DNA of 64,000 nucleotides from Escherichia phage EI-SP-GF. Under the pieces are notes generated by a model that worked only from the letters and a program-made list of their open reading frames with translations, was not told the DNA's origin and searched no databases. The first letter of the stretch is position 1. Each line of letters opens with the position of its first letter. The stretch lies in the sequence record OR992645.1, one strand, 5' to 3'. Shown here one piece after another: positions 39,860 through 64,000 of the stretch. The position numbers and the translations under genes are program-made.

Positions 39860-39861
39860 GT

Positions 39862-40058: not shown

Positions 40059-40086
40059 TTGACAAGCTAACTTAGATCAGTATACT
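40059..40086 (+). promoter_or_regulatory. Sigma70-like promoter (TTGACA-16-TATACT)
   Basis: TTGACA 40059-40064, TATACT 40081-40086; hairpin CGGGAAAACTTCCCAG then AAGGAGA RBS. Confidence 0.6.
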
Positions 40087-40136
40087 AAACACATCAACGG
40101 GAAAACTTCCCAGAACACACAAAAGGAGAAAACACC

Positions 40137-40478
40137 ATGACTACTATGACCGCCGCAGAAAAAGCTATTCAGATCGCTGCCCTGAAAAAACAGATCGCAG
40201 ACCTTGAGAATAAGATCGATAACTTTGAAATCGACGAGGACAAGTACGACGAAAACTATGATGAATGGTTAGACGAGATCTACGGCGAAATTATGATCGG
40301 AAACATTTCTTTTCTTCCGTCGCGTATCCTCAAGGAGCTAGATCCTATCGCTTACCGCTGCGGATTTAGCGACTACATCGACAGCCTGGATATTGAGGAC
40401 GATGAAGAATACCAGGAATTACAGACAGAGTTGGAAGAAGCAAAAGAAGAGCTTGCGGAGCTGGAAGAAAACGAGTAA
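40137..40478 (+). CDS. Highly acidic coiled-coil protein
   Basis: 113 aa, Asp/Glu-rich (EDDEEYQELQTELEEAKEELAELEENE). Confidence 0.6.
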   Translation: MTTMTAAEKAIQIAALKKQIADLENKIDNFEIDEDKYDENYDEWLDEIYGEIMIGNISFLPSRILKELDPIAYRCGFSDYIDSLDIEDDEEYQELQTELEEAKEELAELEENE

Positions 40479-40480
40479 GA

Positions 40481-40525
40481 TTATTTTTAGATGGCCTTGA
40501 CTCCAGGGCCATCAATAAAGTAAAC
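40481..40525 (+). repeat. Conserved 44 bp element, copy 2
   Basis: Identical to 39862-39906. Confidence 0.8.
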
Positions 40526-40567
40526 TTTATACTGTTAACACTGAACTAATGCATAGGAGTTAAAACC

Positions 40568-40813
40568 ATGGCAGCACTAATCACTAAATATTACGCCCCT
40601 ACCAACACCAAAAGCGCCCGTATCATGGTAAAAGGCTTCGGACGTAAAAAGGTTTACACCTGGGATTATTCCCTAGACATGGAAGACAACTACACCAACG
40701 CGATGACTGATTTTATTAATGAACTAAATAAGCAGATCTTAACCAATTATAAGGTGACCGACATCGCCTATGTTGGGGAAGGTGGGATCTGTTTTGTCGG
40801 TATTGTCAAATAA
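40568..40813 (+). CDS. Hypothetical protein
   Basis: AGGAGTT RBS; 81 aa. Confidence 0.55.
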   Translation: MAALITKYYAPTNTKSARIMVKGFGRKKVYTWDYSLDMEDNYTNAMTDFINELNKQILTNYKVTDIAYVGEGGICFVGIVK

Positions 40814-40825
40814 ACTGTTTTTTCG

Positions 40826-40849
40826 GTGGCCCTGGTGGCAGGGCCATCT
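40826..40849 (+). terminator. GC hairpin (TGGCCCTG-gtgg-CAGGGCCA), candidate terminator or processing site
   Basis: 8 bp stem after stop of upstream gene; T-rich tract upstream rather than downstream, so function uncertain. Confidence 0.35.
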
Positions 40850-40888
40850 ATAAAGATAGTTTATTAACACCATGAAAGGAGAAAGTAC

Positions 40889-41242
40889 ATGATCAGCGGG
40901 GCTAGTTTTATTATTGGCGCTATTGCTACAGCTTTAATTGTAAACAAGATCCAGGATAAAAAGGAAAGAGGAAGTACCGCCCTTGCAGAATATCCATTTT
41001 GGACATTCAACGATAACGAAGATTATATTATAAAGTATAAAAATAAAGAAGGTTACCAAGTAACACCGCGACCGATCCCGGCTTACAAGATGCAGGAAAC
41101 ACTATACCGCTTGGAGGCAGGGGGCGCAAAAATTGTGGACTTTTGGGGATACGATCACACAGATCAGGAAGTTATAAAGCGCCGTATCCGGGCTATTCAG
41201 GCCAATATTGAAGTTAGCAAGGGGGGAATATATGAAGATTAA
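40889..41242 (+). CDS. Membrane-anchored hypothetical protein
   Basis: N-terminal hydrophobic MISGASFIIGAIATALIV; AAGGAGAAAG RBS. Confidence 0.55.
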   Translation: MISGASFIIGAIATALIVNKIQDKKERGSTALAEYPFWTFNDNEDYIIKYKNKEGYQVTPRPIPAYKMQETLYRLEAGGAKIVDFWGYDHTDQEVIKRRIRAIQANIEVSKGGIYED

Positions 41243-49879: not shown

Positions 49880-50110
49880 ATTAACTGTCAGCTTGTTGGC
49901 TGTTAGCTTGTCAATTGTTATCTTGTTAATTGTTTTCATGCAAACGAATGTCATGGCTTATCATCTCTGTGTAAACAGTTTGGGCGTAAACTATTCAGGC
50001 GTAAACAGTCTATGAGTAAACAGTGAGATATGGAATAGTAACAGCCGTTATTGTGTCATATTGTGCTGCAGTGCGTTATGTTGTGCCATATTGTGTCACT
50101 ATTATGTCAG
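49880..50110. repeat. Three short tandem-repeat families in non-coding DNA (CTTGTT-type, GTAAACAGT x4-5, ATATTGTG x3)
   Basis: GTAAACAGT copies between about 49971 and 50035; TTGTTAGCTTGT-like units 49885-49935; ATATTGTG units 50058-50095. Confidence 0.65.
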
Positions 50111-51557
50111 ACAAGTTTTTCCTCTCTTTGTCAAGTGCTGCATGAAAAATTTACAAACTGGTATGGTAGCATTTTTGCGGCCCTGTTTACATTCAGTTGT
50201 GTATGTATAACCCTTGTTGTGTGGGCGTTTAGACGTCTGGACGGTCAGAAGTCCGCAGGTTAATATCTAATCTATTGGCTGCTGACTATATCCCACACAA
50301 ATAGTAAGAAATATAATTGTTATATGCGTAAACAGTAACCCATGTTATCAATCCCTGTATGTATCGCCAGTGGTGCGCATAATGGGTATTATGTTAAATT
50401 GCCCGTAATGATAACCATTCTCACAATGATAGGTATTCTCATTCACTCCCACAAGATAGATTGCAAATGTTGTGCCACTGTGTGAACGGCCTGGCCTATT
50501 AATTTGCCTCACTGCCTCGATATTTGAGAATTATTATAAAAATGAGAAGTATTCCCATTCCGTCCGCCTGGCAGCACTCCAGTCGCTACCGGCTCCTGAC
50601 AGGGCAGCACTCCTGTAGGACAAGCACAAAATCGGGGCATAACTGCCTGTTCAGATATTTCTGGCTAACTCTTCAGGCCTGTGTGGGAAAAGCCAACCTC
50701 TCCGGCGGCGGGGAGGGGTCAATTAAAAAATTTAGGTGGTGTATGAAGCGCTCTTCAGGCAAGGTGTGTATTATGGGATGAAACCCTCTTCAGGTGATGA
50801 TATTTGTGGGTGTGATATTTGCTGGAAAGCCAGATATGACGGGACTCCCGGCGGGGCAGGGGTAGTACAGGCAGGGAAAATGTGAGGATGTGGTGGGAGT
50901 AAATTGATCAGGCAGGTAGGATATGGAATATGTTACAAGTATGTTAAATATGGAGGCAGGATATTTGTAAGATTTGTGTGTAAAATCAAAGACTTAAGTG
51001 GTGTTGTGGTATTTTCTATAAATAATTCAAGTTTAATAGGTAATATTTGTCTCTATCCGCTTTGTGTGGTAAACAGATTCTAATTGAATTGGTTTACAAG
51101 TGTATATAAAGTATACAAATTAAAGATATAAGAAACCCCCCTCCCCCTTCGGCTACCATTCACCTTTTCCTCTGACTGGTACTTAAACACTTATTCAGAC
51201 TCTTCAGGTTATCACCCATATACTATATGGCAGTGACTGGTGTCCTCCGGCCCCTCTTTCGTCACCCGTCCGCTTCGCCATGCTAATGCCATAGCTAAAG
51301 GTTCGGTTGTTCACCCTGTTCACTCAGGTGTATCTCCATACCCCTTCAAACCGAAGAGAACAGAAAACCCGAATTACTCGGTAAAAGAAAAGAGAAGAAC
51401 TTAATTTTATCAGGATAGGCAAGAATGTCAAGGGATGACTGCTCACTAAACAAGCAAACAGTCATGTGTGGTAGGTAAGTGATTGTGGTGGTGGAAAATT
51501 TAGTTGAAAGATGTGTTATAGTGCTTCCAGCACTTTAGCCGGGCGGCTAATTGTGTG

Positions 51558-51773
51558 TCAGTCCAGCGGTTCATCCTCCACTTCACTGAAATCAATGTTC
51601 AGGGTCTCTTCCCAACCATCGATCTCAGCACAAGAGTGAAGTTCTTTAGGGTTTACTCCCAAAGCCTCAGCAACAGAGTCTATATTTAACACCTCTGGCA
51701 GGTATGATTCATCGAATTCAAGGTAAATCAGGCCACGAGTGTTGTCAGCTCCACCAAATATTTCTATCTTCAT
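51558..51773 (-). CDS. Small acidic hypothetical protein
   Basis: 71 aa ORF, last gene of minus-strand array. Confidence 0.5.
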   Translation of the reverse strand: MKIEIFGGADNTRGLIYLEFDESYLPEVLNIDSVAEALGVNPKELHSCAEIDGWEETLNIDFSEVEDEPLD

Positions 51774-51894
51774 GAAATCTCCTCTGGAAATGAGAGTGTG
51801 AACAGGGTTTTATACGTCCCAATGCACAGGAATTATGCACGTTTGCCTCTTCAGGCCATGCTTTAGCATGAGGAACCTGTGTGGGCTCGGTGCT

Positions 51895-52233
51895 TCATAG
51901 TCTACCACCTCTGAACTCTTCGTGCTCAGGCATAATAGAGAACCAGATATCTACGATGTCCTCCCACGTCAGGTCATCAGCCTCAGGATCTACCTGGAGC
52001 GAAGATGGAGAATCTTCAGAATCGAAGTTTTCCTCTTTCACTGGCTCAGCCAATGGACATATGGTCACTCCTTCAGATGTCTCTTCAGATGCATGTGTGT
52101 TGATCATGTTCCACCCGTGAGTATTCCGGCAACAGCCGCTATGGACGTAATGATCATCAGGATCACCACTAAAACTTCGGACAATGTTCTCATTGTGTAT
52201 TCCATATTCTCCAAACTGTGTGGATACTATCAC
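51895..52233 (-). CDS. Acidic hypothetical protein (start uncertain)
   Basis: Minus-strand promoter 52224-52252 overlaps the annotated start; true start probably at an internal Met. Confidence 0.4.
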   Translation of the reverse strand: MIVSTQFGEYGIHNENIVRSFSGDPDDHYVHSGCCRNTHGWNMINTHASEETSEGVTICPLAEPVKEENFDSEDSPSSLQVDPEADDLTWEDIVDIWFSIMPEHEEFRGGRL

Positions 52234-52252
52234 TGTAGCGGTAATGTGTCAA
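52224..52252 (-). promoter_or_regulatory. Sigma70-like promoter (TTGACA-17-TAGTAT), minus strand
   Basis: Reverse complement reads TTGACA, 17 nt, TAGTAT. Confidence 0.5.
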
Positions 52253-52417
52253 CAGAAACGCCGCGAGGGTTTGGTTAAAATCCGAGCGTATGGTGATTTG
52301 GGTCAAAACGGACGTGCGTTCTCGCTACGCTCGAAATAGAGAGTTGTTTGTAGGAAGCTCTTAAACGCTTTGTAATGAGATTAACTACCCAAGGTATGCA
52401 ATCGTGCACCAGATAAA

Positions 52418-52445
52418 GAAAAGGACGCCACAGAGCGTCCTAGGT
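52418..52445 (-). terminator. Rho-independent terminator, minus strand
   Basis: GGACGC-tctgtg-GCGTCC followed on the minus strand by TTTTCTTTAT. Confidence 0.65.
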
Positions 52446-52465
52446 GTCTTAAATTTGATGTTTTG

Positions 52466-52777
52466 CTATACCCATGAGGGCTTATCAAGGTTGGAGTAGC
52501 TGAAAGGTGTCAAAAGGTGACTGTCAAAATCTCTCAAACTATCCAGATCTTTTTCCTCGTCCTGACACCATCTGTGCCTACATTTATTGTTGTAGTGCAT
52601 AGAATGCATAGCGTTCTGCAACTTAACAGGCACAAGCGATTCAGGAGTAGATAGTATTGTTGGGTATGCCAGGACTATCTCAAACAATGGAAACACATCG
52701 AAACTGAAGTTTGTTTCTGCAGAGGTTGATGGCATGTAGGAGTATTTAGCCGCCTTTGTAGACATAATCCACCTCAC
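52466..52777 (-). CDS. Hypothetical protein
   Basis: 103 aa ORF. Confidence 0.5.
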   Translation of the reverse strand: MRWIMSTKAAKYSYMPSTSAETNFSFDVFPLFEIVLAYPTILSTPESLVPVKLQNAMHSMHYNNKCRHRWCQDEEKDLDSLRDFDSHLLTPFSYSNLDKPSWV

Positions 52778-53106
52778 ACAGGTTTGATAATACCTTCACC
52801 GAATAACTCTTCGTATCTAATCTTGTCCGGATCCCACTCCTGGATAATTTCGAAGATAATATCCAACCCTGGGATAATCACTTCTCCAGTGTCAAGCTTA
52901 GCAAGAACAAAACCGGAAGGTTGAATGGTTTCCCAGTTACGGCGATCAGAATAAAATACTTCGAAAATATCACCAACCTCAATCCGTTTCTGTTGCTCAA
53001 GATGCTCAAGGTTCTCTTTCATACGGATGCAGCGGATTTTTCGTGCAGGCCATAGACCACCTGCATCACGTTCATTCAATTCTTTTACAGTGATCGGCAT
53101 ACCCAT
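52774..53106 (-). CDS. Hypothetical protein
   Basis: 110 aa ORF. Confidence 0.55.
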   Translation of the reverse strand: MGMPITVKELNERDAGGLWPARKIRCIRMKENLEHLEQQKRIEVGDIFEVFYSDRRNWETIQPSGFVLAKLDTGEVIIPGLDIIFEIIQEWDPDKIRYEELFGEGIIKPV

Positions 53107-53127
53107 CTCAAATCTCCTTCATAGGTA

Positions 53128-53150
53128 GTAAAAAGAGGGGCTTGGGCCCC
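53128..53150 (-). terminator. Rho-independent terminator, minus strand
   Basis: AGAGGGGC-ttgg-GCCCCTCT with TTTTTAC on the minus strand. Confidence 0.65.
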
Positions 53151-53159
53151 TCTTTGTCA

Positions 53160-53465
53160 TTATTCTACAGAGCGTTTGAACAGAATGTCTGCCTCAGACA
53201 TGTGCTCAACCTCTTCTTCGATTTTAGCTCGACGTTTTTCAGCCTCATAGCGAATATCGAACTCGGTAGCCACCAGAGATTTGATGAATTTAGGAGAATA
53301 CAGGTGATCCTGCTTCTCAACGAGAATGATATCCTTAATGGCATCTTTCAGATCTTTAATCTGAAGTTGGAGTTCCACCAGTTCTTCGATTGTTTTGCGG
53401 AGGCGATCACGCTCTGCAGTGTCAGAAGGAAGAGAGGTGAACAGTTCAACTTTAGATTTAGCCAT
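53160..53465 (-). CDS. Coiled-coil hypothetical protein
   Basis: 101 aa, heptad-like charged repeats. Confidence 0.55.
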   Translation of the reverse strand: MAKSKVELFTSLPSDTAERDRLRKTIEELVELQLQIKDLKDAIKDIILVEKQDHLYSPKFIKSLVATEFDIRYEAEKRRAKIEEEVEHMSEADILFKRSVE

Positions 53466-53493
53466 AGTAAGAGTCTCCTTATGTTGTTTTAAA

Positions 53494-53745
53494 TTAACGT
53501 TCTACAAAAATACCGTTCAGTTCAATAACCAGGAATTTCTGGTCTTCACTATCGTCTCGTGCCAGCACCTCACAGACGTATCGGTCATCTCCATCATCAT
53601 CGCAGTCAAATACAAGACTGAGGACTTTATCATGATAAACCTTCGCCACTACCGCCTCGTAAGTATTGCCGATTGTGAATCCAAGATAATCTCCAATGCA
53701 TTTGACAACAACATGATCGCCAGCATTCAAGTCAATCTTCGTCAT
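53494..53745 (-). CDS. Hypothetical protein
   Basis: ATG 53745 after AAGGAG RBS (the longer track ORF lacks an RBS). Confidence 0.55.
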   Translation of the reverse strand: MTKIDLNAGDHVVVKCIGDYLGFTIGNTYEAVVAKVYHDKVLSLVFDCDDDGDDRYVCEVLARDDSEDQKFLVIELNGIFVER

Positions 53746-53900
53746 TACTGCGCTCCTTGGGTAATAATACTGTATGTAAAACTTTAACCAGAGATGTGAA
53801 TAACGCCCCAAAACACACCGATAGCGCTAAAACAGACAAGGCCATCATTAAAGCTTCAGTAAAATCAGTCACTCCTCACCTCTTGTTAGTCACTATACTG

Positions 53901-54164
53901 TCATTTATCCTTGCCGTCAAGAACTTTTTTAAATCTTTCAGGTATATCGCCTGTTCTTAGATAGCTCATGACCTCACAAGGTTCCCATTTGAATTTCTTG
54001 CAAAGCAGGGCGGCTGAGATTGTTTCATTGCGAAAAGAAAGGATATTAATATCCCATTCTGAGAACCCCAACTTCCGAAGGGTAGCTACAGAAATCCTCA
54101 CCGCAACCCAGCAGCAAAAACATGCAACAAACGCCACTGCTATAACCCACATCAGGATGTTCAT
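53901..54164 (-). CDS. Small membrane protein
   Basis: N-terminal TM MNILMWVIAVAFVACFCCWVAV. Confidence 0.5.
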   Translation of the reverse strand: MNILMWVIAVAFVACFCCWVAVRISVATLRKLGFSEWDINILSFRNETISAALLCKKFKWEPCEVMSYLRTGDIPERFKKVLDGKDK

Positions 54165-54253
54165 ACAAGCACCTCACTGAAATACAAGACACAGTGTTAA
54201 GGTTGCAGACCAGCAAATAATTAACAGTGCCGTTGCAACCTTGGCAAGATTTA

Positions 54254-54541
54254 TCATAGTGCCTCTAAGATTTCATACCCTTCGGGTCGGAATACAAGCC
54301 ACTCCGTGGATCCGTTTGGTCGATACGCTTTATACAGAACAACCTGATCTCGGCACATGCACATAGCTACATAGTTTTCATCCACACCTGCAGCCTGCAT
54401 TGCATCTTCTTCTCCGGTAACTGCTTTGCTTACAACCTCCTTAGTAGGCAGGTGTGCGATCAGCTCGTCACCATCATTAATTCCAAAATGGCTGAGTTCT
54501 CCACTGGTATCTTTAATCTTGATCTTAACCAAATCCTTCAT
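54254..54541 (-). CDS. Small acidic protein
   Basis: 95 aa; MK..KIKIKD start and acidic EGYEILEAL end, like neighbours. Confidence 0.55.
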   Translation of the reverse strand: MKDLVKIKIKDTSGELSHFGINDGDELIAHLPTKEVVSKAVTGEEDAMQAAGVDENYVAMCMCRDQVVLYKAYRPNGSTEWLVFRPEGYEILEAL

Positions 54542-54870
54542 TAGTCTTCCCCCAAGTTCAAAGGTCCTAAGATTTCATATGCCAGATTAGAAGTTACCAG
54601 GGGATCTTCTGCATCTTTAGTATTATACCACCCGTGAATAACCAGAGTCCCACTTTGCTTCATGTCTAACTGGAACTGTTCTGCCGTTTCCTCATCCATC
54701 TCCAAGATCTCCATGAGGTATTTGATGTTAGGAAGGTATGCAGCTGTTACAGTCCCCTCTACCAGGCCTTCAGGCCAACCTACATCCGGATGACAAGTAG
54801 GGACCAGAGAGGTCAGCTTGATAGTGTATGCTTTTTCTGCACGAGCCTTCAGTAACGGATCAATTTTCAT
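54541..54870 (-). CDS. Small acidic protein
   Basis: 109 aa ORF. Confidence 0.55.
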   Translation of the reverse strand: MKIDPLLKARAEKAYTIKLTSLVPTCHPDVGWPEGLVEGTVTAAYLPNIKYLMEILEMDEETAEQFQLDMKQSGTLVIHGWYNTKDAEDPLVTSNLAYEILGPLNLGED

Positions 54871-55220
54871 TATTCTTCCTCCTCTTCGGTGCCTGCTTCC
54901 AGTAGTAAGTTAAGAACATCTTCAGCAGAAGGTTCGTAGAACTCTTGGCCTTCGTTGTCGATGATACGATAGTCATCACCACGAATAATTAGAGGATCGT
55001 CATCAAAACCTTCAAGACCTTTAACAACGACAACACGGTCGATTGCCATCATTGTAAGAACTTTATCAACATCTTCCTCTGCTACACCATACTGCAGCAG
55101 AATGTCTTTGGTAGGAGGGACAGCATCCACCACAACACCGTTACCAAAACCTTCCGGAAGTTTAGCTAAAATATCTTCCGGAACCACATTCATATCAAAA
55201 CCTGTGATCTCTACTTTCAT
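54870..55220 (-). CDS. Small acidic protein with poly-Glu tail
   Basis: 116 aa; ends EAGTEEEEE. Confidence 0.55.
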   Translation of the reverse strand: MKVEITGFDMNVVPEDILAKLPEGFGNGVVVDAVPPTKDILLQYGVAEEDVDKVLTMMAIDRVVVVKGLEGFDDDPLIIRGDDYRIIDNEGQEFYEPSAEDVLNLLLEAGTEEEEE

Positions 55221-55481
55221 TTACAGAACCTCTTCGTCAACTACTTCATAAAAATGGCTTGGGATTGCAATGGCGTTCTCGCCTTCACCTAAGAACACTG
55301 TCCCACTAACGATTAACATTAGAAGAACGTCTGCGATACCTTCCTCTGGGACGTTGCCAAAACCTTTAATCAGCTCGTAGGTTGGAAGATTTACCTCTAA
55401 GATGTCACCATCCTTAGAACGGAAATCAACACCGTCCTGAATCTCTGCCGTTTCAAGGTTTTTCAATTTAATCTTCATCAA
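55221..55481 (-). CDS. Small acidic protein
   Basis: 86 aa; MMKIKLKNLE...YEVVDEEVL. Confidence 0.55.
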   Translation of the reverse strand: MMKIKLKNLETAEIQDGVDFRSKDGDILEVNLPTYELIKGFGNVPEEGIADVLLMLIVSGTVFLGEGENAIAIPSHFYEVVDEEVL

Positions 55482-55557
55482 TCAGTCTCCTGTCTTGTTA
55501 AGATGAAGGTATTATTGCACACAGGGTTGGTGTTGTCAACACCTGTGTGTCATAAAA

Positions 55558-55953
55558 TTACTGAAACAGTGCAGATAAATTACCTTCTGGTGGGAACTTA
55601 TCTGCCAGGAATGGGGTTAGAACAGTGGCCTTCTGAAGATCAGGGGTCCACTCATTGTTCAGAACATCCCAGTAGTACGCAATGTTGCTGTGTGGGTGAC
55701 GCATTACGAACTTTTTCCCTTCGTAGCCATCTGAAACCTCTACAGAAGAAATAACAACAGAATCTTCAAGGGTTTCTTCATAGAAAGATCCGCCTTCAAA
55801 TTTCCAACGAGATGCAAGAGCCCCTGCCTTGAACGCTGCAGATAACGGACTGTCGGCAAGAACATACATTTCTTGCACTCTGTCGCTGCGATCTTTGCTT
55901 CTTACGTTGTATACAGTATCTGAGCTATACTCAACACGGTATAGGCTTACCAT
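55558..55953 (-). CDS. Hypothetical protein, paralogue of 57760-58158
   Basis: Shares KKFVMRHPHSNIAYYWDVLNNEWTP with the other copy. Confidence 0.6.
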   Translation of the reverse strand: MVSLYRVEYSSDTVYNVRSKDRSDRVQEMYVLADSPLSAAFKAGALASRWKFEGGSFYEETLEDSVVISSVEVSDGYEGKKFVMRHPHSNIAYYWDVLNNEWTPDLQKATVLTPFLADKFPPEGNLSALFQ

Positions 55954-56312
55954 TACCGCACCTCCTCAATAACTTCCACATCTGAACCTACCACAAATGC
56001 AAAAGGACAGGTTTCATGAAAGATATCCGGATCGCCGCCAAGCTTGCTAACAATCTCTCCACCACTAATAAACACAAGCTCACCGATATTCATCAGATTG
56101 CTGAAATAGTACCCATAATGATTAAAGAATGCAGCAGGATCAGGTAGACTAGTAGCCTCAAGCACTACATCAGTTGAGGTTACTTTCTTATCATAACCTC
56201 TCGCCTTTTGAGATGCAAGATCTGCAGAATCCTCAGGAGACCGGAGATGCACAGGGATTGTTTCACCAATAAAGCGTACTTTCATATTATCACCCAACAA
56301 CCATAGCTTCAA
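55953..56312 (-). CDS. Hypothetical protein
   Basis: 119 aa ORF; internal alternative start MKVRF. Confidence 0.5.
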   Translation of the reverse strand: MKLWLLGDNMKVRFIGETIPVHLRSPEDSADLASQKARGYDKKVTSTDVVLEATSLPDPAAFFNHYGYYFSNLMNIGELVFISGGEIVSKLGGDPDIFHETCPFAFVVGSDVEVIEEVR

Positions 56313-56553
56313 AAGGAGTCATGAACGAATAAACGGCATCATCATCTGCTTCAGGGAATGCTCCCAAAGACTTCATGTCTGAGCCCTTGACAAATACAAG
56401 GTTTTGATCAAAGGCTTCTTGGGGGTCAATCCGATACATATTTCGTAGAATATCGCTTACCTCCTCATCAAGAGGTGAGTATGCTGTGCACGTTTTTCCG
56501 ATCAAGCTTTGAGAATCAGGGTATCCACCTGAAGTTTTAAAATAAACAATCAT
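56290..56553 (-). CDS. Small protein related to the DLIAAGA family
   Basis: VFVKGSDMKSLGAFPE resembles VMVKGKDLLAAGAES. Confidence 0.5.
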   Translation of the reverse strand: MIVYFKTSGGYPDSQSLIGKTCTAYSPLDEEVSDILRNMYRIDPQEAFDQNLVFVKGSDMKSLGAFPEADDDAVYSFMTPFEAMVVG

Positions 56554-56644
56554 ATAGTATCACCTCTGGTAAGAGATTGGGATTCCTTTCCCACAAATAA
56601 TTACAAACCTTCCTTATCGAGGAAGCATGCTAATCCGAGCAGGA

Positions 56645-56914
56645 TTATTCCTCTACAATCTCATACACATCAGGAGTTACAATCAACTCTTCTCCGTTAC
56701 CCGGTGCAACAAACACCACCAAGCCTTCAGGTGTGTGCTTTTTAGCCATCTCGATAACATCTTCTCGCAGAGCTGGCTCCATCAGATCAAAGCCTTCACC
56801 CAGGGCATCACGAACCACCTTCATATAGTCCACTGGTTGTGCTTCAACAATCATGCCTTCAACCAGTCCACAGTTTTTGTCTGCCAGCTCAGTTTTGAAT
56901 AATTTAATTTTCAT
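56645..56914 (-). CDS. Small acidic protein
   Basis: 89 aa; MKIKLFK...YEIVEE. Confidence 0.55.
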   Translation of the reverse strand: MKIKLFKTELADKNCGLVEGMIVEAQPVDYMKVVRDALGEGFDLMEPALREDVIEMAKKHTPEGLVVFVAPGNGEELIVTPDVYEIVEE

Positions 56915-57051
56915 TTAGAGGTCTCCTCAATTATTTGATATTAATAGCCGTAACCTAACACATTAACTACAACTGCGATTGCAAACATAATTTCAAAGCA
57001 TGCAATCTCTACATTTGGGACTAATTTCTTAATCATGCCCATTGTAGCACC

Positions 57052-57369
57052 TCATTCTCCAAAGTCAATCTTTACTTTGCCTTTCCCCTTACCTTTCTTT
57101 CCACCACATTTAGCCAACTGACGTGCTGCAACATCTACCATACGGTCAGTTGCCTCGTAAGCATCACTGCCTTTAGCTTTGGCAATAACTTCTTTTCCGG
57201 AAGTGTCAAAAATGAACGCCATAACTTCCTGGTGATCATTTTCAACTTTTACACTCACACGTGCATAGTTGGCAGAGGGGTGCAAACGCTCCAGCTTAGA
57301 CATTTTGTGGGAAATGAAAGACACCATACCTTCAGTGATTTCTACGTTGCCAGTGATTTCAATTTGCAT
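57052..57369 (-). CDS. hpf: Ribosome hibernation promoting factor homologue (HPF/RaiA/YfiA family)
   Basis: MQIEITGNVEITEGM...KLERL...VSVKVE...GKEVIAKAKGSDAYEATDRMVDVAARQLAK aligns along its length with the E. coli HPF sequence as recalled; Lys/Gly-rich tail. Confidence 0.8.
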   Translation of the reverse strand: MQIEITGNVEITEGMVSFISHKMSKLERLHPSANYARVSVKVENDHQEVMAFIFDTSGKEVIAKAKGSDAYEATDRMVDVAARQLAKCGGKKGKGKGKVKIDFGE

Positions 57370-57416
57370 AACGTGTTCCTTTTAAAGAAGAGGGAACCAA
57401 ACCCTCTTTGAAAACA

Positions 57417-57445
57417 ATGATACTAAATCTGAAGCGTTGTGTCAA
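57417..57445 (-). promoter_or_regulatory. Sigma70-like promoter (TTGACA-17-TATCAT), minus strand, driving the HPF gene
   Basis: Reverse complement reads TTGACA, 17 nt, TATCAT; followed by hairpin AGAGGG-tttggtt-CCCTCT and AAAGGAAC RBS. Confidence 0.6.
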
Positions 57446-57451
57446 CAGTTT

Positions 57452-57742
57452 TTACAGCTTGTCGTCGATAGTTTTTAAAATATCCACAGCAAGATCTGCC
57501 ATTTTTCGAACATACTCTGCAAACTCAACAGGATCCTTGATCAAAGAATTCACAGGGTCGTACCCTAGAGCGTTCAAAATGGCTGCAGCATCTACAACCT
57601 TCTCATCATTTGCGAAGATCTCTCCATCAAACTTGTAGGTCCATTTTGAGTCAATCTTGGCAGAGAAGGATTGGTCAACGCTTGTTACACCATCCTTTTT
57701 AAACTCTCCGGTGTTATCAGTGTCCAGAACTAAATCCATCAT
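57452..57742 (-). CDS. Hypothetical protein
   Basis: 96 aa ORF. Confidence 0.55.
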   Translation of the reverse strand: MMDLVLDTDNTGEFKKDGVTSVDQSFSAKIDSKWTYKFDGEIFANDEKVVDAAAILNALGYDPVNSLIKDPVEFAEYVRKMADLAVDILKTIDDKL

Positions 57743-57759
57743 GTTAGTACCTCACTGTT

Positions 57760-58158
57760 TCAGTCTAGCTTTTCTTCAACAACCCCATAACTTGGGGCAG
57801 AGTCAAGAGCTTTCTGGTTTAAAAGTGGCGTAGCAGAATCTGCAAACGGTGTCCAAGTTTTTGTTCTGGCATTCCAGTAATGCTTCACTCTGGAATCTGG
57901 ATGCACTATAACAAAAACTTTTTCACTTGTCAACACATTAATTTCTTCTACACCCTTGCTGATAATTTCTCCGTCATAGCCACCAATCTGGTATCCTTCG
58001 TACCAGGTTCTTGCATATGCATAGCCAGCCTGCCAGCATGCAGCCTCCTCCGAGGTGGAGACTACGTAGAAGTCTTTCTCAAATTCTGGGATACGCCCTT
58101 GCTTTACGCTCCAAGACCCGCGAATTTTCATTGTAACTTTGAACAGTTTATTTTTCAC
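57760..58158 (-). CDS. Hypothetical protein, paralogue of 55558-55953
   Basis: KVFVIVHPDSRVKHYWNARTKTWTP. Confidence 0.6.
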   Translation of the reverse strand: MKNKLFKVTMKIRGSWSVKQGRIPEFEKDFYVVSTSEEAACWQAGYAYARTWYEGYQIGGYDGEIISKGVEEINVLTSEKVFVIVHPDSRVKHYWNARTKTWTPFADSATPLLNQKALDSAPSYGVVEEKLD

Positions 58159-58170
58159 AACGGTTACCCC

Positions 58171-58425
58171 TCACAGCTCTACAATCTCTGCATCTGACCC
58201 TGCCCCAAAGGCATAATAGGATTCTTCCCCGAAATAATATTCCGGTGCACCAGCAGCGATCAGGTCTGATCCCAAGATAAACACCACGTTGTGGCCTACA
58301 TAACTGTGATGTTGCCGCACAGGATCATCCCACGGCAACCCTTCAAAGTATACCGCAGGAACGACCTTTCCATTCAGGAAGGATTGTCCCAAGTAGACGT
58401 TAGAATCAAGAATTTTAACCTTCAT
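58171..58425 (-). CDS. Small protein, DLIAAGA family member
   Basis: MKVKILDSNVYLGQ...GSDLIAAGAPE. Confidence 0.6.
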   Translation of the reverse strand: MKVKILDSNVYLGQSFLNGKVVPAVYFEGLPWDDPVRQHHSYVGHNVVFILGSDLIAAGAPEYYFGEESYYAFGAGSDAEIVEL

Positions 58426-58642
58426 TCTCGTCCTCCACTATCTCTACATCCTCACCAAGGGCAAAGTTGTAGGTCCACTGACTGTCAAAGCAGTCCTGAG
58501 ATGCACCAGCGGCAATAAGATCTGCACCTTTTATTTTTAAAAGGTCAGGATAATCTTCGTTAGGGATAGCGGTAAACACTTTCCCCACTAAGGGCTCCTG
58601 ACCAATATAGAAGCTTGAATCTAAAACTTTAACTTTCATCAA
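58415..58642 (-). CDS. Small protein, DLIAAGA family member
   Basis: MMKVKVLDSSFYIGQ...GADLIAAGASQ. Confidence 0.6.
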   Translation of the reverse strand: MMKVKVLDSSFYIGQEPLVGKVFTAIPNEDYPDLLKIKGADLIAAGASQDCFDSQWTYNFALGEDVEIVEDENEG

Positions 58643-58926
58643 CGGTCTCCCTCAGGCGGTTGTGGGACGTAAACACTGTTACGAATATCGTCAGCAGTGT
58701 AGTAATAAGTGGTTCCAACCCTATCTCGGGCTGCAATGTACTCTGCTATACCAATAAGTGCCATTGATTTGGTGGCGTATCTTCCCAACTCGTTAGCTCC
58801 CCAGTAGAATTTAGACCAGTAGGGAATAAGACCGAACAAATATACCTTTTGACGAACTTCCCAGTAAGTGCCTTTTCCGACAAGTTTAAACTCTACTTCA
58901 CTACTGTTAATCTTTTTCATTATCAA
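58639..58926 (-). CDS. Hypothetical protein
   Basis: 95 aa ORF. Confidence 0.55.
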   Translation of the reverse strand: MIMKKINSSEVEFKLVGKGTYWEVRQKVYLFGLIPYWSKFYWGANELGRYATKSMALIGIAEYIAARDRVGTTYYYTADDIRNSVYVPQPPEGDR

Positions 58927-59219
58927 TCTCCCTCTACCGTGGTCGGATTGTCAGTAAGAAATTGAGCATTGGCTGGAGGCACGCCTGACATTTTCCACAC
59001 AACCATAAGTTTGTAACCAGGCACTCTATTAAGTGCAGATCGAGTAGAGTTTGTGCACGTATACTTTCGCTTTCCAAACCCGTTCTCCATCATAATCCAG
59101 TACCCAGTATCTTTGTCACCAGGTATCGGTAGACCACCTTCATCAACCCACTGAATGGACCACGGCACGATGGCTACAGCTTTATATTTAAACTTTTTAA
59201 ACCACTCAAAAAGTTTCAT
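58923..59219 (-). CDS. Hypothetical protein
   Basis: 98 aa ORF. Confidence 0.55.
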   Translation of the reverse strand: MKLFEWFKKFKYKAVAIVPWSIQWVDEGGLPIPGDKDTGYWIMMENGFGKRKYTCTNSTRSALNRVPGYKLMVVWKMSGVPPANAQFLTDNPTTVEGD

Positions 59220-59519
59220 AATTCAGCCTCGCATAGACATAATCACTATAAACAGGCAAATAATGAATCCGAATGCCACGCCACCCATAAACGTTAATAT
59301 TGATGCGACCATAATCAATCAGCCTCGTTTGGCAGCTCTTCCATTTTTACATACCGGAAAGTGTTGCCGTAATAGTTGATCCATGACATCAGCTCACTTT
59401 CTTGCTCTTCCTCTGGGATGGACTCTCGAACGCTGACAAGTTTTAAGAAAACCCAATCACAATCCACCCCCCATCCTACCAGACAGACAATAGTGCTTCA
59501 TAAAACCCTCCCGCCTGGT

Positions 59520-59714
59520 TTAGAATATTGCTTCTTCCATTGCACCTGAGAGCAACAAAGAGGTAATCTGGCTAACATTCATCTCAGACTCCACTTCCTC
59601 TCCTTTGAAAGGTTCGCGGCAGAATAGGACTGTTTCAGGATTTTTACTTCGAACAATATAATACAAATCATTCAAAGTGTTGTAGTAATAAGTGTTAAAA
59701 TGTAAGTTTTTCAT
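59520..59714 (-). CDS. Hypothetical protein
   Basis: 64 aa ORF. Confidence 0.45.
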   Translation of the reverse strand: MKNLHFNTYYYNTLNDLYYIVRSKNPETVLFCREPFKGEEVESEMNVSQITSLLLSGAMEEAIF

Positions 59715-59998
59715 TTTCTAGTCCCCTTTTTAGATTTTTGTGCAGAAACGCTTTCTGCAATACGAGACAGGCGTTCTTCTGAAGCTTTACCTACCCCAGG
59801 TTTCTTGAGCGGATTATCTTTATGACCGCAATCCAATTGGATGCTAGATACATCCCCAACCTTGTAAGTCAATTCTAGCAAAAGGTTGTCGTCCTTGTCA
59901 AATGTTTTTACGATAAATTTTTTATCGTCCTCCTTAACTTCATATCTAGTACCTGCAGTATACAGCATGGTGCCATCAGCGTAGGATATCCAGATCAT
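59711..59998 (-). CDS. Hypothetical protein
   Basis: 95 aa ORF. Confidence 0.55.
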   Translation of the reverse strand: MIWISYADGTMLYTAGTRYEVKEDDKKFIVKTFDKDDNLLLELTYKVGDVSSIQLDCGHKDNPLKKPGVGKASEERLSRIAESVSAQKSKKGTRK

Positions 59999-60342
59999 TG
60001 CACCTCCTTCTGCTGCAACAGCATCAACTCTTTGTTGGAAATCTTTACTGCTGTCTTTATTGTCCCATCTTCACGGAACCACGACCAGAATTCTACAGTA
60101 TCACCACTATCAAGCAAGGCATGACCATGGTAAAAATCTTTGTCCTTAGACAGTTTCTCATCTATATCTGCATCGACACATTCGTGATCCATAGCATTCT
60201 GCCTGAATGCATCGGTTATGCCAATGCACGCCTTACTCTCAAGGCTGGTATACCCAATATCTTTTAATTCAGTTTCCCAAGTCCAGTATCCTACAAAAGC
60301 TACAACAGCCACCCACATTAATATCGATTTAATCTTTGACAT
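59995..60342 (-). CDS. Secreted or membrane-anchored hypothetical protein
   Basis: N-terminal hydrophobic MSKIKSILMWVAVVAFVGYWTW. Confidence 0.55.
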   Translation of the reverse strand: MSKIKSILMWVAVVAFVGYWTWETELKDIGYTSLESKACIGITDAFRQNAMDHECVDADIDEKLSKDKDFYHGHALLDSGDTVEFWSWFREDGTIKTAVKISNKELMLLQQKEVQ

Positions 60343-60402
60343 TCTCTCTACCTCTTTCTTAGTTTATTTAGTTATGGCACATCCTTTGTGCCATAATGCA
60401 CA

Positions 60403-60864
60403 TTACTTAAACAACAGTTCAAAATAGTGCAAAATTAACAGAAGTTGAATTACGCCTAGCACAACTGCAAGTATGTTGATCTTAGAATCAAAAAACTTCT
60501 TAACTTTTACCCTAAAAGGCTCCTTAATGTCCTTTACGATCCTATTTATAGATGATTTCATATCCCTGATTACCATCCTAAACATTAGAGACGGATCTTC
60601 CTTCTCTGTAACGGAATCGAAAACATACTCTCTTCGGTCATAAGGACCTCCAGATCTGCGTATTAACCTCTCCACAGATACCTCGTACGACACACCTGTA
60701 ACGTAATCATCTATGACAAGTAGTGACGGGTCTTTATCGTCCAAAGGTATCAAAGTTATCTTTCCAGATTTTGTTAAAATTTCTCCTTTTTCAAGCAGTG
60801 TGTACCAATGCTCTCTACCAAGGTTGTTGAGGCACGTTTTTACATATTTAACAAACATCGTCAC
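60403..60864 (-). CDS. Hypothetical protein with C-terminal TM helix
   Basis: 153 aa; C-terminal NILAVVLGVIQLLLILHYF. Confidence 0.6.
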   Translation of the reverse strand: MTMFVKYVKTCLNNLGREHWYTLLEKGEILTKSGKITLIPLDDKDPSLLVIDDYVTGVSYEVSVERLIRRSGGPYDRREYVFDSVTEKEDPSLMFRMVIRDMKSSINRIVKDIKEPFRVKVKKFFDSKINILAVVLGVIQLLLILHYFELLFK

Positions 60865-61046
60865 CCCTCATCGCACGTCTGATATAGCCATTCTATGAAA
60901 TCTTGATACCACTCTCCCTCTGAGCGCTCCGTAGGCCAATAATCTTCCCCCTCTCTTGCATTAAAATCTGAGTATTCAACTTTCCACTCCTTTACCAGCT
61001 CGTGGAGAAGGTTTTCAGCCTGTTCTAAGGATTTATTTTTTGTCAT
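60861..61046 (-). CDS. Small hypothetical protein
   Basis: ATG 61046 after AAGGGG RBS. Confidence 0.45.
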   Translation of the reverse strand: MTKNKSLEQAENLLHELVKEWKVEYSDFNAREGEDYWPTERSEGEWYQDFIEWLYQTCDEG

Positions 61047-61129
61047 TACTGTCCCCTTTTTCAATATAATTATACATCAGCGCCGCGCCACCTAAAATGG
61101 CTACCAGCAGTAATACCCCAGAGAGCATT

Positions 61130-61282
61130 TCAATAAACATGGCTTGAAACATTAGAAGGCCCCCCTAATTTCACGCACCATTTTAAATACATATTCTTTT
61201 CCCATAAAGGTGCCCGGCTAAGATCTGCGTAGAATGCAATCTCTTTAAGAACAGTATAAACAGTTTTAGGTGCGGTATCCAT
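61130..61282 (-). CDS. Small hypothetical protein (50 aa)
   Basis: ATG 61282 after AAGGAGAAAAAGGAGAG RBS. Confidence 0.35.
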   Translation of the reverse strand: MDTAPKTVYTVLKEIAFYADLSRAPLWEKNMYLKWCVKLGGPSNVSSHVY

Positions 61283-61502
61283 CCCTACTCTCCTTTTTCT
61301 CCTTACGGATATTCTTGCGGTAATCAACTAGGCACATTATTACGATGAAGATAACAACAGGCCAAAAGGGCGCAGCAGTGATGATGGTGATAAAATCATC
61401 AAACTTCACCCTTCGGGTAGACACGATGCATATACCTGCCAAGATTACTGCTGTTATAACAGCTACTACCAGGTAACCTATCAGCACAGCATCTATACTC
61501 AT
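61266..61502 (-). CDS. Small membrane protein (two TM helices)
   Basis: LIGYLVVAVITAVILAGICIV and AAPFWPVVIFIVIMCLV hydrophobic segments. Confidence 0.5.
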   Translation of the reverse strand: MSIDAVLIGYLVVAVITAVILAGICIVSTRRVKFDDFITIITAAPFWPVVIFIVIMCLVDYRKNIRKEKKESRDGYRT

Positions 61503-61520
61503 TGGCTCCTCCTTTGTAGG

Positions 61521-62066
61521 TTAAATTGTACACTGCAGGTGGTTGCCGAGGGTGTCAAGAAAATTATCCCGTTCTTTCTCAGAGTTTTCATGGGTGTAGC
61601 TGAAAAACATATCTAGAATAACCTTATTGATATATTCCAGCTCCTCTGTGTTCAGGTACTTAGCAGGATCTACAATGACATCCCAAATATCATACAAACC
61701 GCACTCATGATACCCCCAACGCCACTCAACTGTCAAACTGAGCGGCAAATCTTTACCATCACAAACAACCTTCCATCTGCAGATGTTGGTATCTGGACGT
61801 ACCTGTGCACGGTATACCTGTACAAAATCCAATTTGAATTTGAGGTACTCGTCATACAATTTAAGTACAAAACTCTCGATTTGTGGAGACACTTTTGCAG
61901 CAAACTGTGCGTATTTGTACTTGCACTGGATGATCTTTCTGCGTTTTGCAGTTAAATTTTTTGCAGCCAGTTGTTCTTCAGTGTACCTCCACCTACGATC
62001 AACAAACGCAACAGGGTCTTTGTCCCCATAGAGGTCTTCCCAGTTAATCAGAAGCATACCTGTCAC
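61521..62066 (-). CDS. Hypothetical protein
   Basis: 181 aa ORF. Confidence 0.6.
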   Translation of the reverse strand: MTGMLLINWEDLYGDKDPVAFVDRRWRYTEEQLAAKNLTAKRRKIIQCKYKYAQFAAKVSPQIESFVLKLYDEYLKFKLDFVQVYRAQVRPDTNICRWKVVCDGKDLPLSLTVEWRWGYHECGLYDIWDVIVDPAKYLNTEELEYINKVILDMFFSYTHENSEKERDNFLDTLGNHLQCTI

Positions 62067-62296
62067 TCCTCCACAACTTCAAGGCCTTTGCCGCCTCGTT
62101 CTGGTAGATTACTTAAAGACAGGTAATACGTATAGTCAGGAGAGATCCTGCCAGACTCTGCACCTGCAGCTAGTAAATCTTTTCCCTTAACCATGACAAC
62201 ATTATCGTTTGCAGATAGCCGTTTTGCTTCCACAATTTTACCAACGCAGTCAACCAAGGAAGGGTACCCTAAATCTGTAAGAAATTTAACTTTCAT
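62063..62296 (-). CDS. Small protein, DLIAAGA family member
   Basis: MKVKFLTDLGYPS...GKDLLAAGAES...LEVVEE. Confidence 0.6.
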   Translation of the reverse strand: MKVKFLTDLGYPSLVDCVGKIVEAKRLSANDNVVMVKGKDLLAAGAESGRISPDYTYYLSLSNLPERGGKGLEVVEE

Positions 62297-62335
62297 GCTA
62301 CCTCCTGCTTTTACCGTCCCTGGTAAGATAAATTA

Positions 62336-62734
62336 TTACTGAACAGATCGCGGAGCTGGGAAGGATAACTCTTCTAAAGAGAAGATTTCATTTCCCACAA
62401 TCCATGTTGCCGGATCATCCGGGTTGACTGGATAGATAATCATCACCTCGTCCGTGTTACATACTCGCTTTTTACCTGTGGAGTTATCAGCAACTAGCAT
62501 GCGAGGCTCTTCAGAGATACACAAGTATCCACCACGTCCAACTGTCCCTTCTACAGGATCCTGGCCTTTTATCACGATGAATATCTTCTCTCCTGCGGTG
62601 ATATTACCTTGCACACTCACCGTTTGACCAACCTTGGATGTGCCAATCTTAGTGACTTCGAACATTACATCACGGATAACTGTTGCATAGTTACCAGAGA
62701 CTTTCTTACCTTCTTCAGTAATCTCAATCTTCAT
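62336..62734 (-). CDS. Hypothetical protein
   Basis: 132 aa ORF. Confidence 0.6.
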   Translation of the reverse strand: MKIEITEEGKKVSGNYATVIRDVMFEVTKIGTSKVGQTVSVQGNITAGEKIFIVIKGQDPVEGTVGRGGYLCISEEPRMLVADNSTGKKRVCNTDEVMIIYPVNPDDPATWIVGNEIFSLEELSFPAPRSVQ

Positions 62735-62970
62735 AATTTAGGCTCCTTAAATGAATCTATATAGTCAATTAAATCCCAAGCATCTCTATGGCCTGTCAGA
62801 GGGTATACTTCTCCAAGAGGGATCATAGCAATAAGCCTATCAAAAACCCAATCTGGACGCAACATTTTATGATGATATTCCCACTCACCTTCCACAGATT
62901 TTTTCTGAGTGATCAGAATCTCTGTGTAGTGTTTTGTCTGTCTTGAGTAGATTGAAAATGACTTATACAT
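62731..62970 (-). CDS. Hypothetical protein
   Basis: ATG 62970 after AGAGGGGGG RBS (track start is TTG). Confidence 0.5.
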   Translation of the reverse strand: MYKSFSIYSRQTKHYTEILITQKKSVEGEWEYHHKMLRPDWVFDRLIAMIPLGEVYPLTGHRDAWDLIDYIDSFKEPKL

Positions 62971-63006
62971 AGATGACCCCCCTCTTGTTGAAAACAAAAT
63001 ACACTA

Positions 63007-63291
63007 CTACCAGGTCACTGTCAAGTAGGCAACTGTGTTATTTTTCTCCGGGGAGATGCCAACAACATCCACCTGCAGACCTCCTGCCCTCAAATCCCCA
63101 ACGATGTGTGGGAAGTAGTCTGAGAGGTGTGATGGAAGATTTATCGAAAATCCGCATCCCAGAAAGCCTGCTAACGCCTTATTTTGTATCTCCCCTACAA
63201 TCGCATCATAAATGGAGTTAAGCTCGTCAGGGAGAGTTACAGGACGTTTTAGCGCTAACTGGTGCAACTTGTCCTTAGCACTCATTTTCAT
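63007..63291 (-). CDS. Hypothetical protein
   Basis: ATG 63291 after GGAGG RBS; overlaps stop of upstream methyltransferase. Confidence 0.5.
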   Translation of the reverse strand: MKMSAKDKLHQLALKRPVTLPDELNSIYDAIVGEIQNKALAGFLGCGFSINLPSHLSDYFPHIVGDLRAGGLQVDVVGISPEKNNTVAYLTVTW

Positions 63292-63821
63292 TTCAAGTCT
63301 GCCTCCGGAGGTGCCAACCACATAAATGGTGGTAGGTCTAAACGGTTCTTCTTGTCCCACACAAAATATGCATATGCTTGCCCGTCAGTTCTGCCATTCG
63401 ATTGGAATGATGGACGCTTAGATATTGTGATCACAGTGGTAGGGGCATTATCAAGCCACCATTCAAATCTGGCCTTGCTTTCCAGAAAATTAAGACGCAA
63501 AAGCATAATAACTACGTCGGCATCTTTCAACGCCTTGTCCACAAACTCACGAGCCAGGCTGTACGGCGGGTTGGTGATAATACAGTCAACATGGTTGTAT
63601 TCTGTATTCAGATAGTCAACACCTTCTTGGATTTCTCCCCATGCAGATCCTAACGGCATACGGGAGTAGAACACACCTGAGGCGCTATTCCTGCAAGGCT
63701 CCAAATAGGTCCAATCTTCTGGGAACGGAATGAGGTCATACAACCCTTCTGCACACCACTCTGGTGTCACATATTCATCATAGGCGTTACGTTGTTCGTC
63801 AGGTTTTCTAGCACAAGTCAT
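63288..63821 (-). CDS. DNA N6-adenine methyltransferase, small phage Dam-like type
   Basis: Catalytic IITNPPY motif; 177 aa. Confidence 0.75.
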   Translation of the reverse strand: MTCARKPDEQRNAYDEYVTPEWCAEGLYDLIPFPEDWTYLEPCRNSASGVFYSRMPLGSAWGEIQEGVDYLNTEYNHVDCIITNPPYSLAREFVDKALKDADVVIMLLRLNFLESKARFEWWLDNAPTTVITISKRPSFQSNGRTDGQAYAYFVWDKKNRLDLPPFMWLAPPEADLK

Positions 63822-63837
63822 GCAAATCTCCAGATCA

Positions 63838-63861
63838 TAAAAGCCCTCCGAAGAGGGCTTT
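63838..63861 (-). terminator. Hairpin (AAAGCCCTC-cgaa-GAGGGCTTT), candidate terminator
   Basis: 9 bp stem; short T-run on the minus strand. Confidence 0.45.
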
Positions 63862-63872
63862 AAGATTAATGT

Positions 63873-64000
63873 TTAAGCTTCTTCGATAATTCCTGCGCCC
63901 AGGATTTTTTCATTGAGCTCTTTTGCTGTTTTAATAATATTGTCCACCAGACGCTTGCGGGTCTTATCTTTAACCTGAACTTCTTCACCTCCGTTCAGGG
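63873..64000 (-). CDS. C-terminal fragment of a protein whose 5' end lies outside the window
   Basis: Minus-strand frame open from window edge, ending ...LVDNIIKTAKELNEKILGAGIIEEA*. Confidence 0.4.
   Translation of the reverse strand, partial: LNGGEEVQVKDKTRKRLVDNIIKTAKELNEKILGAGIIEEA

Follow-up and report, generated by a model that had tools for sequence, protein, structure and literature searches.

Five small paralogous genes with a predicted SH3-like fold in an accessory gene block of an rV5-like Escherichia phage

We consider a 64,000-nucleotide stretch of Escherichia phage EI-SP-GF (sequence record OR992645.1; the whole stretch that was analysed is called the window below), the minus strand of which carries, among many other small genes, five related genes that we refer to as family 1 and designate A, B, C, D, and H. 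Region 56000-62800 of the window aligns over its full length, at 94.5-95.1% identity, with more than 100 Vequintavirus genomes (rV5-like E. coli myophages), including LL12, NHEP1, and the BASEL phages AlexBoehm and RudolfGeigy, and by its sequence the source of the window is a Vequintavirus, that is, an rV5-like coliphage. In the matching genomes nearly all genes of this region are annotated as "hypothetical protein." In AlexBoehm, about 45 small minus-strand genes follow one another in an unbroken run, downstream of genes for an anaerobic ribonucleotide reductase and for PhoH-like, ClpP-like, and Dam-like proteins. The members of family 1 in the window are as follows (E, expectation value):

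58415..58639, minus strand: B, 74 residues; starts MKVKVLD and contains GADLIAAGA; matches phrog_5009 at E 3.9e-37; the sequence used for the structure model
58171..58425, minus strand: A, 84 residues; starts MKVKILD and contains GSDLIAAGA; matches phrog_5009 at E 4.4e-32
62063..62296, minus strand: C, 77 residues; starts MKVKFL and contains GKDLLAAGA; matches phrog_5009 at E 2.5e-36
56290..56553, minus strand: D, 87 residues, divergent; starts MIVYFKTSGGY and contains GSDMKSLGA; matches phrog_5009 at E 1.2e-4 and also phrog_13920
55953..56285, minus strand: H, 110 residues, directly downstream of D; starts MKVRFIGE and contains GGEIVSKLGG; matches phrog_13661

All five proteins are short (74-110 residues) and acidic (isoelectric point, pI, 4.0-5.4), strongly so in the case of A, B, D, and H (pI 4.05-4.65, net charge -7 to -10) and mildly so in that of C (pI 5.39, net charge -1). 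For B, the ATG at 58639 is the most likely start in place of the TTG at 58642; it yields the MKVKVLD terminus, and the Shine-Dalgarno sequence GAGGGAGA lies upstream of it. H starts at the ATG at 56285, matching the AlexBoehm annotation, and the start of A overlaps the end of B by 11 nucleotides. In the alignment, A has a 14-residue insertion between strands 2 and 3 of the predicted fold described below, D an insertion of about 25 residues between the same strands, and H two insertions, while C carries the C-terminal insert LPERGGKGLEVVEE.

A sequence-only reading of the window had proposed that four of these open reading frames (ORFs), namely A, B, C, and more weakly D, are diverged copies of one module, and all four are indeed present on the minus strand where that reading had placed them. 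Across the six-frame ORFs of the window (71,260 residues), the block G.DL[IL]AAGA that it had pointed out occurs exactly three times, only in the ORFs beginning MKVK[IVF]L, against about 2e-5 occurrences expected from composition. The likeness among A, B, and C spans the whole length of the proteins: in BLASTP comparisons within an 11-sequence database, A and B are 42% identical (E 1e-15), B and C are 32% identical (E 3e-8), and A matches C at E 3e-4, while H matches B at E 3e-5 and A at E 2e-4. Overall, paralogs inside the window are 22-50% identical. An independently built profile, phrog_5009 of PHROGs v4, gives full-length matches to A, B, and C and a marginal one to D, with no direct match to H. 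We also built a hidden Markov model (HMM) from A, B, and C alone and searched it against the 1119 six-frame ORFs of at least 30 residues in the window; it retrieves D (E 1.4e-5) and H (E 1.7e-4), and the next match has E 1.4. The copies are thus significantly related by profile comparison, the ground on which the proposal could have failed, and D is a relative on the evidence of both the A+B+C model and phrog_5009. Where the earlier reading had counted three to four copies, the family stands and the count does not: there are five paralogs, H having been overlooked. In leave-one-out searches, each of the five members was the top match outside the training set (E 3e-14 to 5e-5, with D at 1.9e-5 and H at 5e-5).

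To characterize the fold, B was modelled with AlphaFold2 from a 41-sequence alignment, giving a predicted local distance difference test score (pLDDT) of 93.7 and a predicted template modelling score (pTM) of 0.81. The model contains strands at residues 2-5, 21-26, 33-37, 56-61, and 65-69 and a short helix at 38-43; its five strands are strongly bent, antiparallel, and arranged in the SH3 strand order, as in SH3-like small beta-barrels. The MKVK start forms strand 1, and the motif G38-x-D-L-I-x-A-G45-A runs from the end of strand 3 through a helix of one to two turns into the turn after it. Of 17 alignment columns conserved at 70% or more, 12 are Met, Gly, hydrophobic, or aromatic (M1, V3, L6, Y11, G19, A24, G38, L41, G45, A46, Y57, and F59), and the other 5 (K2, K4, K20, E66, and E69) lie on or beside strands 1, 2, and 5. 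The variable loops of B are residues 7-16, 25-32, and 47-55, and all insertions fall in loop 25-32. Since conservation is concentrated in columns that determine the fold and the loops are variable, we infer from the model that the DLIAAGA motif is mainly structural, part of the fold-determining core, and that any specificity would reside in the loops.

Comparison with catalogued families returned little beyond the PHROG matches. Pfam yielded no family at E<=1 for A, B, C, D, or H, nor does any relative in the 41-sequence alignment match a Pfam SH3 family. By this measure the family lacks the canonical SH3 signature (ALYDY-type RT loop, WW, SNY) and, having no Pfam KOW match either, the KOW motif of NusG, Spt5, and L24. 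None of the 41 matches the PADLOC-DB defence HMMs at E<=0.1, NCBIfam returned noise only (E>=0.0026, far below its cut-offs), and a profile search of the PDB returned solely a designed ankyrin repeat (E 1.8) through a trivial LL-AGAD string. Structure matches to B in BFVD are other uncharacterised small phage proteins, with template modelling (TM) scores up to 0.87. Relative to known SH3-like barrels (PsaE, the KOW domains of Spt5/NusG, and eukaryotic SH3), family 1 shows no sequence relationship and no Pfam SH3, KOW, or PsaE match, and its short helix comes after strand 3. Scores of this kind are typical of the fold at large, and a shared function does not follow from them. On sequence grounds, family 1 corresponds to phrog_5009 and its satellites phrog_13920 and phrog_13661, which are catalogued and uncharacterised. 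The phrog_5009 entry comes without function, fold, or literature, and because D and H are filed in separate PHROGs, the five-fold paralogy is hidden in the catalogue; neither this paralogy nor the predicted SH3-like fold seems to have been described previously.

The repeated duplication that the sequence-only reading had suggested is borne out by the arrangement of the genes, in which B and A form one tandem pair, D and H form another, and after each pair comes one of two paralogs matching phrog_7379:

57760..58158, minus strand: X1, phrog_7379, directly downstream of the B-A pair
55558-55953, minus strand: X2, phrog_7379, directly downstream of the D-H pair; paralog of X1

X1 and X2 match phrog_7379 at E 8e-73 and 1e-65, and they are 28% identical to each other (BLASTP, E 2e-9). 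The parallel orders B-A-X1 and D-H-X2 suggest, at the sequence level, that a three-gene segment consisting of a tandem pair and a phrog_7379 gene was duplicated long ago. An obligatory cassette of two family-1 genes and a phrog_7379 gene was considered and rejected, because in the metagenomic relative L007 an unrelated gene stands in place of X1; nor does any phrog_7379 relative accompany family 1 in other phages. L007 otherwise retains five family-1 genes together with the five genes of a second family (family 2, listed below), in the same order, with orthologs 44-75% identical to those of the window. As L007 keeps all copies, and the paralogs within the window are only 22-50% identical, the duplications predate the L007 split; judged from these sequences they are old, and the evidence does not show recent or rapid copy turnover. 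The ratio of nonsynonymous to synonymous substitution rates (dN/dS) is 0.06-0.25 for B, C, D, and H in comparison with AlexBoehm, from which A has no synonymous differences, and 0.06-0.30 for B, D, and H in comparison with L007, these being the genes for which dS is unsaturated. Such values indicate real genes under purifying selection.

Natural variation shows that part of the block can be lost. The BASEL phage EduardKellenberger (Bas59, MZ501061.1; L060 in our set) carries a natural 3.8-kb deletion corresponding to window positions 57846-61660, which removes A, B, most of X1, and about a dozen other genes. The junction lies at approximately 9622-9636 of MZ501061.1, with a 15-bp overlap, and joins a 181-residue gene to the tail of X1 in a fusion ORF annotated as "putative glycosidase." Bas59 was isolated and propagated on K-12, and A and B are therefore dispensable there, along with other genes of the block (about 15 small genes in all). 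Salmonella phage PVP-SE1 (L061), of the sister genus Seunavirus, has no member of family 1, family 2, or phrog_7379 in the 20 kb (20921-40903) that lie downstream of its ClpP and Dam genes, which marks the block as a genus-specific, replaceable accessory region.

Genes in the block abut or overlap, and the Shine-Dalgarno sequence of one gene commonly lies inside the part of the preceding gene that encodes its acidic C-terminus. Between 54541 and 62066 on the minus strand, the acidic tails (E-[IV]-V-E-E, EEEEE) of many small genes overlap the next Shine-Dalgarno sequence in this way, for example at gtggaggacgagaATG and gaagaggaggaagaataATG, and a common C-terminal motif can thus reflect translational coupling and not homology. 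From 52 to 64 kb the guanine-cytosine (GC) skew stays negative, in keeping with uniform coding on the minus strand. Taken as one account of identity, the propositions that A, B, C, D, and H form a real paralogous family of five copies, that these copies share a predicted five-stranded SH3-like small beta-barrel, and that their genes sit on the minus strand in a dense accessory block that is non-structural and coupled in translation are well supported, and we hold them with high confidence.

Outside the genus, relatives are sparse and patchy. Whereas a direct word-indexed protein search with B finds only close Vequintavirus orthologs, a profile search of 1.84 billion representative proteins returned 27 matches at E<=1e-3, nearly all of 63-107 residues, with the consensus MKVKLLNDGGY..VGKVVEA..I.G.DLI.AGA...F....Y.F..G.E.EVVEE; outside Vequintavirus, the family is found in single or paired copies in mEpimmI phages and a few Vibrio, Proteus, and metagenomic phages. 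One match to the large HMM search, the 1140-residue repeat protein P0044, was judged spurious and excluded. C represents a subtype in common with the mEpimmI phages, a Nus-dependent temperate coliphage group: it is encoded by mEp010, mEp021_40, and mEp554 and their prophages, and occurs in 35 of 5426 complete E. coli genomes, annotated as hypothetical. The proteins mEp021_40, mEp010_59, and prophage P0031 are true homologs, 50% identical to C (E 1.5e-19), and are likewise uncharacterised; they differ in setting, being present in a single copy per genome in a temperate siphophage and in a moron-type position, as against the array of a lytic myophage in the window. The mEpimmI homolog lies between the Q antiterminator and the holin, and the family-1 gene is the only gene common to that prophage neighbourhood and the small-gene block of the window. 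We also scanned IMG/VR and bacterial genomes with a degenerate DNA pattern for family-1 loci; IMG/VR yielded mainly mEpimmI-type prophage contigs and a few Vequintavirus contigs, and the bacterial genomes, taken as one genome per species, yielded no match.

Other homologs lie within small-gene arrays and have no constant neighbour. Neighbours elsewhere include a primase-polymerase with AAA_24 and, in further cases, a DnaB-like ATPase or an RNA ligase; the homolog of Vibrio phage CHOED adjoins a DNA polymerase and an exonuclease, and that of Proteus phage ZX7 lies upstream of a lysis cassette. We considered whether family 1 is regularly linked to replication genes and rejected the idea, because other homologs are located upstream of lysis cassettes. 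Tandem or second copies are present in the unrelated phages CHOED, L052, and L056. In CHOED (L006, 3557-4216 and 4206-4409), a family-1 domain follows an annotated HNH endonuclease in frame, with no stop between them, and a second family-1 gene comes after it; this ORF may be a true fusion or an annotation read-through, and it was not used as a functional clue, as an internal Met (MQVKLIG) is found at the start of the domain.

The second family of the block, family 2, comprises five genes for small, acidic proteins with a C-terminal Y-E-I-[VL]-E:

56645-56914, minus strand: family-2 gene
55221-55478, minus strand: family-2 gene
54870-55220, minus strand: family-2 gene
54541-54870, minus strand: family-2 gene
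54254-54541, minus strand: family-2 gene

In leave-one-out searches each member was again the top match outside the training set (E 2.4e-4 to 3.8e-3), and family 2 was found only in Vequintavirus-like contigs. Its AlphaFold2 model (pLDDT 93.3) has the strand order of family 1 with a helical insert of about 30 residues at the same loop, and its weak BFVD matches overlap the family-1 list. Profile-profile comparison of the two families with hhalign showed no significant relationship (probability 28%, over 28 N-terminal columns only, and at most 3% for other groupings), and thus does not support a single superfamily; a shared fold is suggested by the strand order and the overlapping BFVD matches only, and a common origin is possible. 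The E-V-V-E-E terminus common to both families may be due in part to overlap with the Shine-Dalgarno sequence of the next gene.

Several further genes of the block, all on the minus strand, are of interest in their own right. The gene at 57052-57369 encodes a homolog of ribosome hibernation factors (Pfam Ribosomal_S30AE, E 1.9e-12) amid the small-gene arrays and is kept in L007. The 181-residue gene at 61521-62066 is labelled "putative glycosidase" in BASEL genomes, a label that looks unsupported, as the gene has no Pfam match and corresponds only to phrog_13467, of unknown function. The 153-residue gene at 60403-60864 matches phrog_7821, "virion structural protein," and may, judged by position only, be the gene of rV5 gp133, an unexpectedly abundant virion protein (PMC3606486). 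Small ORFs at 62336-62734 and 51561-51809 have an MKIEI start that resembles those of the two families, and the HMM of neither family detects them. Separately, 18 "Campylobacter phage" records (MG0656xx, host C. jejuni) are 90-95% identical to this Vequintavirus region; probably, either their host labels are wrong or the phages are contaminants.

With regard to expression, we scanned positions 50000-64000 for sigma-70-like promoters by consensus, with a threshold of at least 10/12. Ten sites reached this score, every one of them on the minus strand, and in several the TTGACA element is perfect; examples are:

57417..57445, minus strand: sigma-70-like promoter match
61736-61707, minus strand: sigma-70-like promoter match
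59901-59872, minus strand: sigma-70-like promoter match
57933-57905, minus strand: sigma-70-like promoter match
55539-55511, minus strand: sigma-70-like promoter match

Phage rV5 is reported to have 33 sigma-70-type promoters genome-wide and no phage RNA polymerase (PMC3606486), so that transcription of the block by the host RNA polymerase is likely.

As to what these proteins do, we suggest that each family-1 paralog may act as a stand-alone SH3-like protein-binding module that would bind, and then modulate or inhibit, a protein of the host or of the phage in the course of infection. Its conserved barrel would serve as a scaffold and the loops 7-16, 25-32, and 47-55 (B numbering) would set the partner, so that different paralogs would address different partners; family 1 would move between phages as a single-gene accessory unit. 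The core of this proposal, that the paralogs are protein-binding modulators with partners defined by the variable loops of the modelled barrel, is offered tentatively, as a possibility well short of an even chance, and the best explanation taken whole comes somewhat closer to even while still falling below it. The sequence-only reading had supposed that the module acts on a variable host target. From sequence this is plausible, given that conservation falls mainly on columns that determine the fold and the loops vary, that a viable phage has lost two copies by natural deletion, and that Seunavirus, the sister genus, lacks the entire block.

Several observations weigh against this proposal. The strict conservation of the paralogs and the stable synteny are unlike a fast arms race with a variable target. 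Acidity is equal in most of the neighbouring unrelated small proteins, and is not specific to family 1. The mEpimmI homolog, downstream of Q, occupies a late or moron position. For the block itself, we infer early expression from promoter-like consensus sites only, and the total count of promoter matches is not enriched (38, against 30.1 +/- 5.8 in shuffled sequences). The structure rests on prediction from a shallow alignment of 41 sequences, and literature searches turned up nothing on the family-1 genes, be it a partner, a phenotype, or expression timing.

A parallel is offered by small proteins with which virulent phages take over the host or counter its defences. T7 Gp2, Gp5.7, and Gp5.9, T4 Arn, and the products of anti-CRISPR loci are short, mostly acidic, non-essential single-domain proteins, encoded in packed accessory blocks, often in multiple copies and horizontally exchanged. 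Family 1 resembles them in being short, mostly acidic, and located in a packed accessory block, and differs in having no homology to any of them. A bolder version of the proposal, which we consider unlikely, is that the five paralogs of family 1, perhaps joined by the five family-2 genes with their similar predicted barrel, form a diversified battery of SH3-like decoys or inhibitors, each using its variable loops to neutralise a distinct target among the defence and nucleic-acid-handling proteins of the host, in an array comparable to anti-CRISPR loci whose cassettes are traded with mEpimmI coliphages.

The alternatives can be weighed against the same evidence. Among them, a sub-case of protein binding is that the family-1 proteins are acidic DNA-mimic decoys, which would tie up a DNA-binding protein of the host: a nuclease of a restriction or defence system, for instance, or else a nucleoid protein or a repressor. 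There is precedent for such a mode of action: the phage proteins Ocr, Arn, and Gp5.9 are DNA-mimic decoys, ArdA is a DNA mimic of the same type, and CarS, an antirepressor of Myxococcus xanthus, is a small, acidic, stand-alone DNA mimic of SH3 topology that acts by binding another protein. Family 1 is likewise small, acidic, stand-alone, and SH3-like by prediction, yet it has no sequence or specific structural match to CarS, which is bacterial whereas family 1 belongs to phages. The charge of A, B, D, and H (net -7 to -10 in 74-110 residues), the predicted fold, and the accessory, partly dispensable nature of the genes would all fit mimicry. Set against them are the mild acidity of C (pI 5.4) and the equal acidity of unrelated neighbouring small proteins. 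Moreover, restriction-modification systems are reported to be exceptionally effective against Vequintavirinae (BASEL paper, PMC8594841), which speaks against mimics that block restriction effectively; we regard this alternative as improbable. Equally improbable, in our judgement, is that family 1 consists of nucleic-acid-binding KOW-, Sm-, or Tudor-like regulators of RNA or DNA, or of the transcription, translation, or replication machinery: the net charge is acidic, no basic residues are conserved beyond K2, K4, and K20, no Pfam KOW, Sm, or Tudor match was found, and the neighbourhoods are inconsistent, with the gene upstream of a lysis cassette in other phages.

That family 1 is a virion-associated component, or an assembly factor or chaperone, is very improbable. 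It would accord with the virion structural PHROG match of the neighbouring gene at 60403-60864 and with the annotation of the mEp021 gene adjoining the homolog as a virion structural protein; yet the main text of the rV5 study (PMC3606486) names no family-1 member among the virion proteins, the family-1 genes are far from the morphogenesis modules, and a viable phage lacks A and B through deletion. Finally, we give practically no credence to the notion that there is no real family at all, only chance likeness or terminal constraints from translation initiation and downstream Shine-Dalgarno sequences, because, even though the overlapping acidic tails could inflate likeness at the extreme C-terminus, the likeness is full-length with HMM and PHROG E-values down to 1e-37, the expected count of the internal motif is 2e-5, and the 1.84-billion-protein search recovers full-length relatives from unrelated phages; chance similarity is excluded by the PHROG, HMM, leave-one-out, and motif statistics.

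The reading that we favour remains that of a family of putative protein-binding modulators with a predicted SH3-like scaffold. To a specialist, family 1 is unsurprising, a typical instance of phage accessory "dark matter." At the level of annotation, five "hypothetical proteins" become one SH3-like family (by predicted fold), five more become a second family, and the block is recognised as a genus-specific accessory region. The natural deletion in Bas59 and the BASEL collection allow comparison without engineering. E. coli phage cocktails often include rV5-like phages, and if the paralogs do bind distinct host proteins, they would constitute compact, easily expressed natural inhibitors or probes from a therapeutically relevant genus, and would provide a function for a PHROG that is currently without one.

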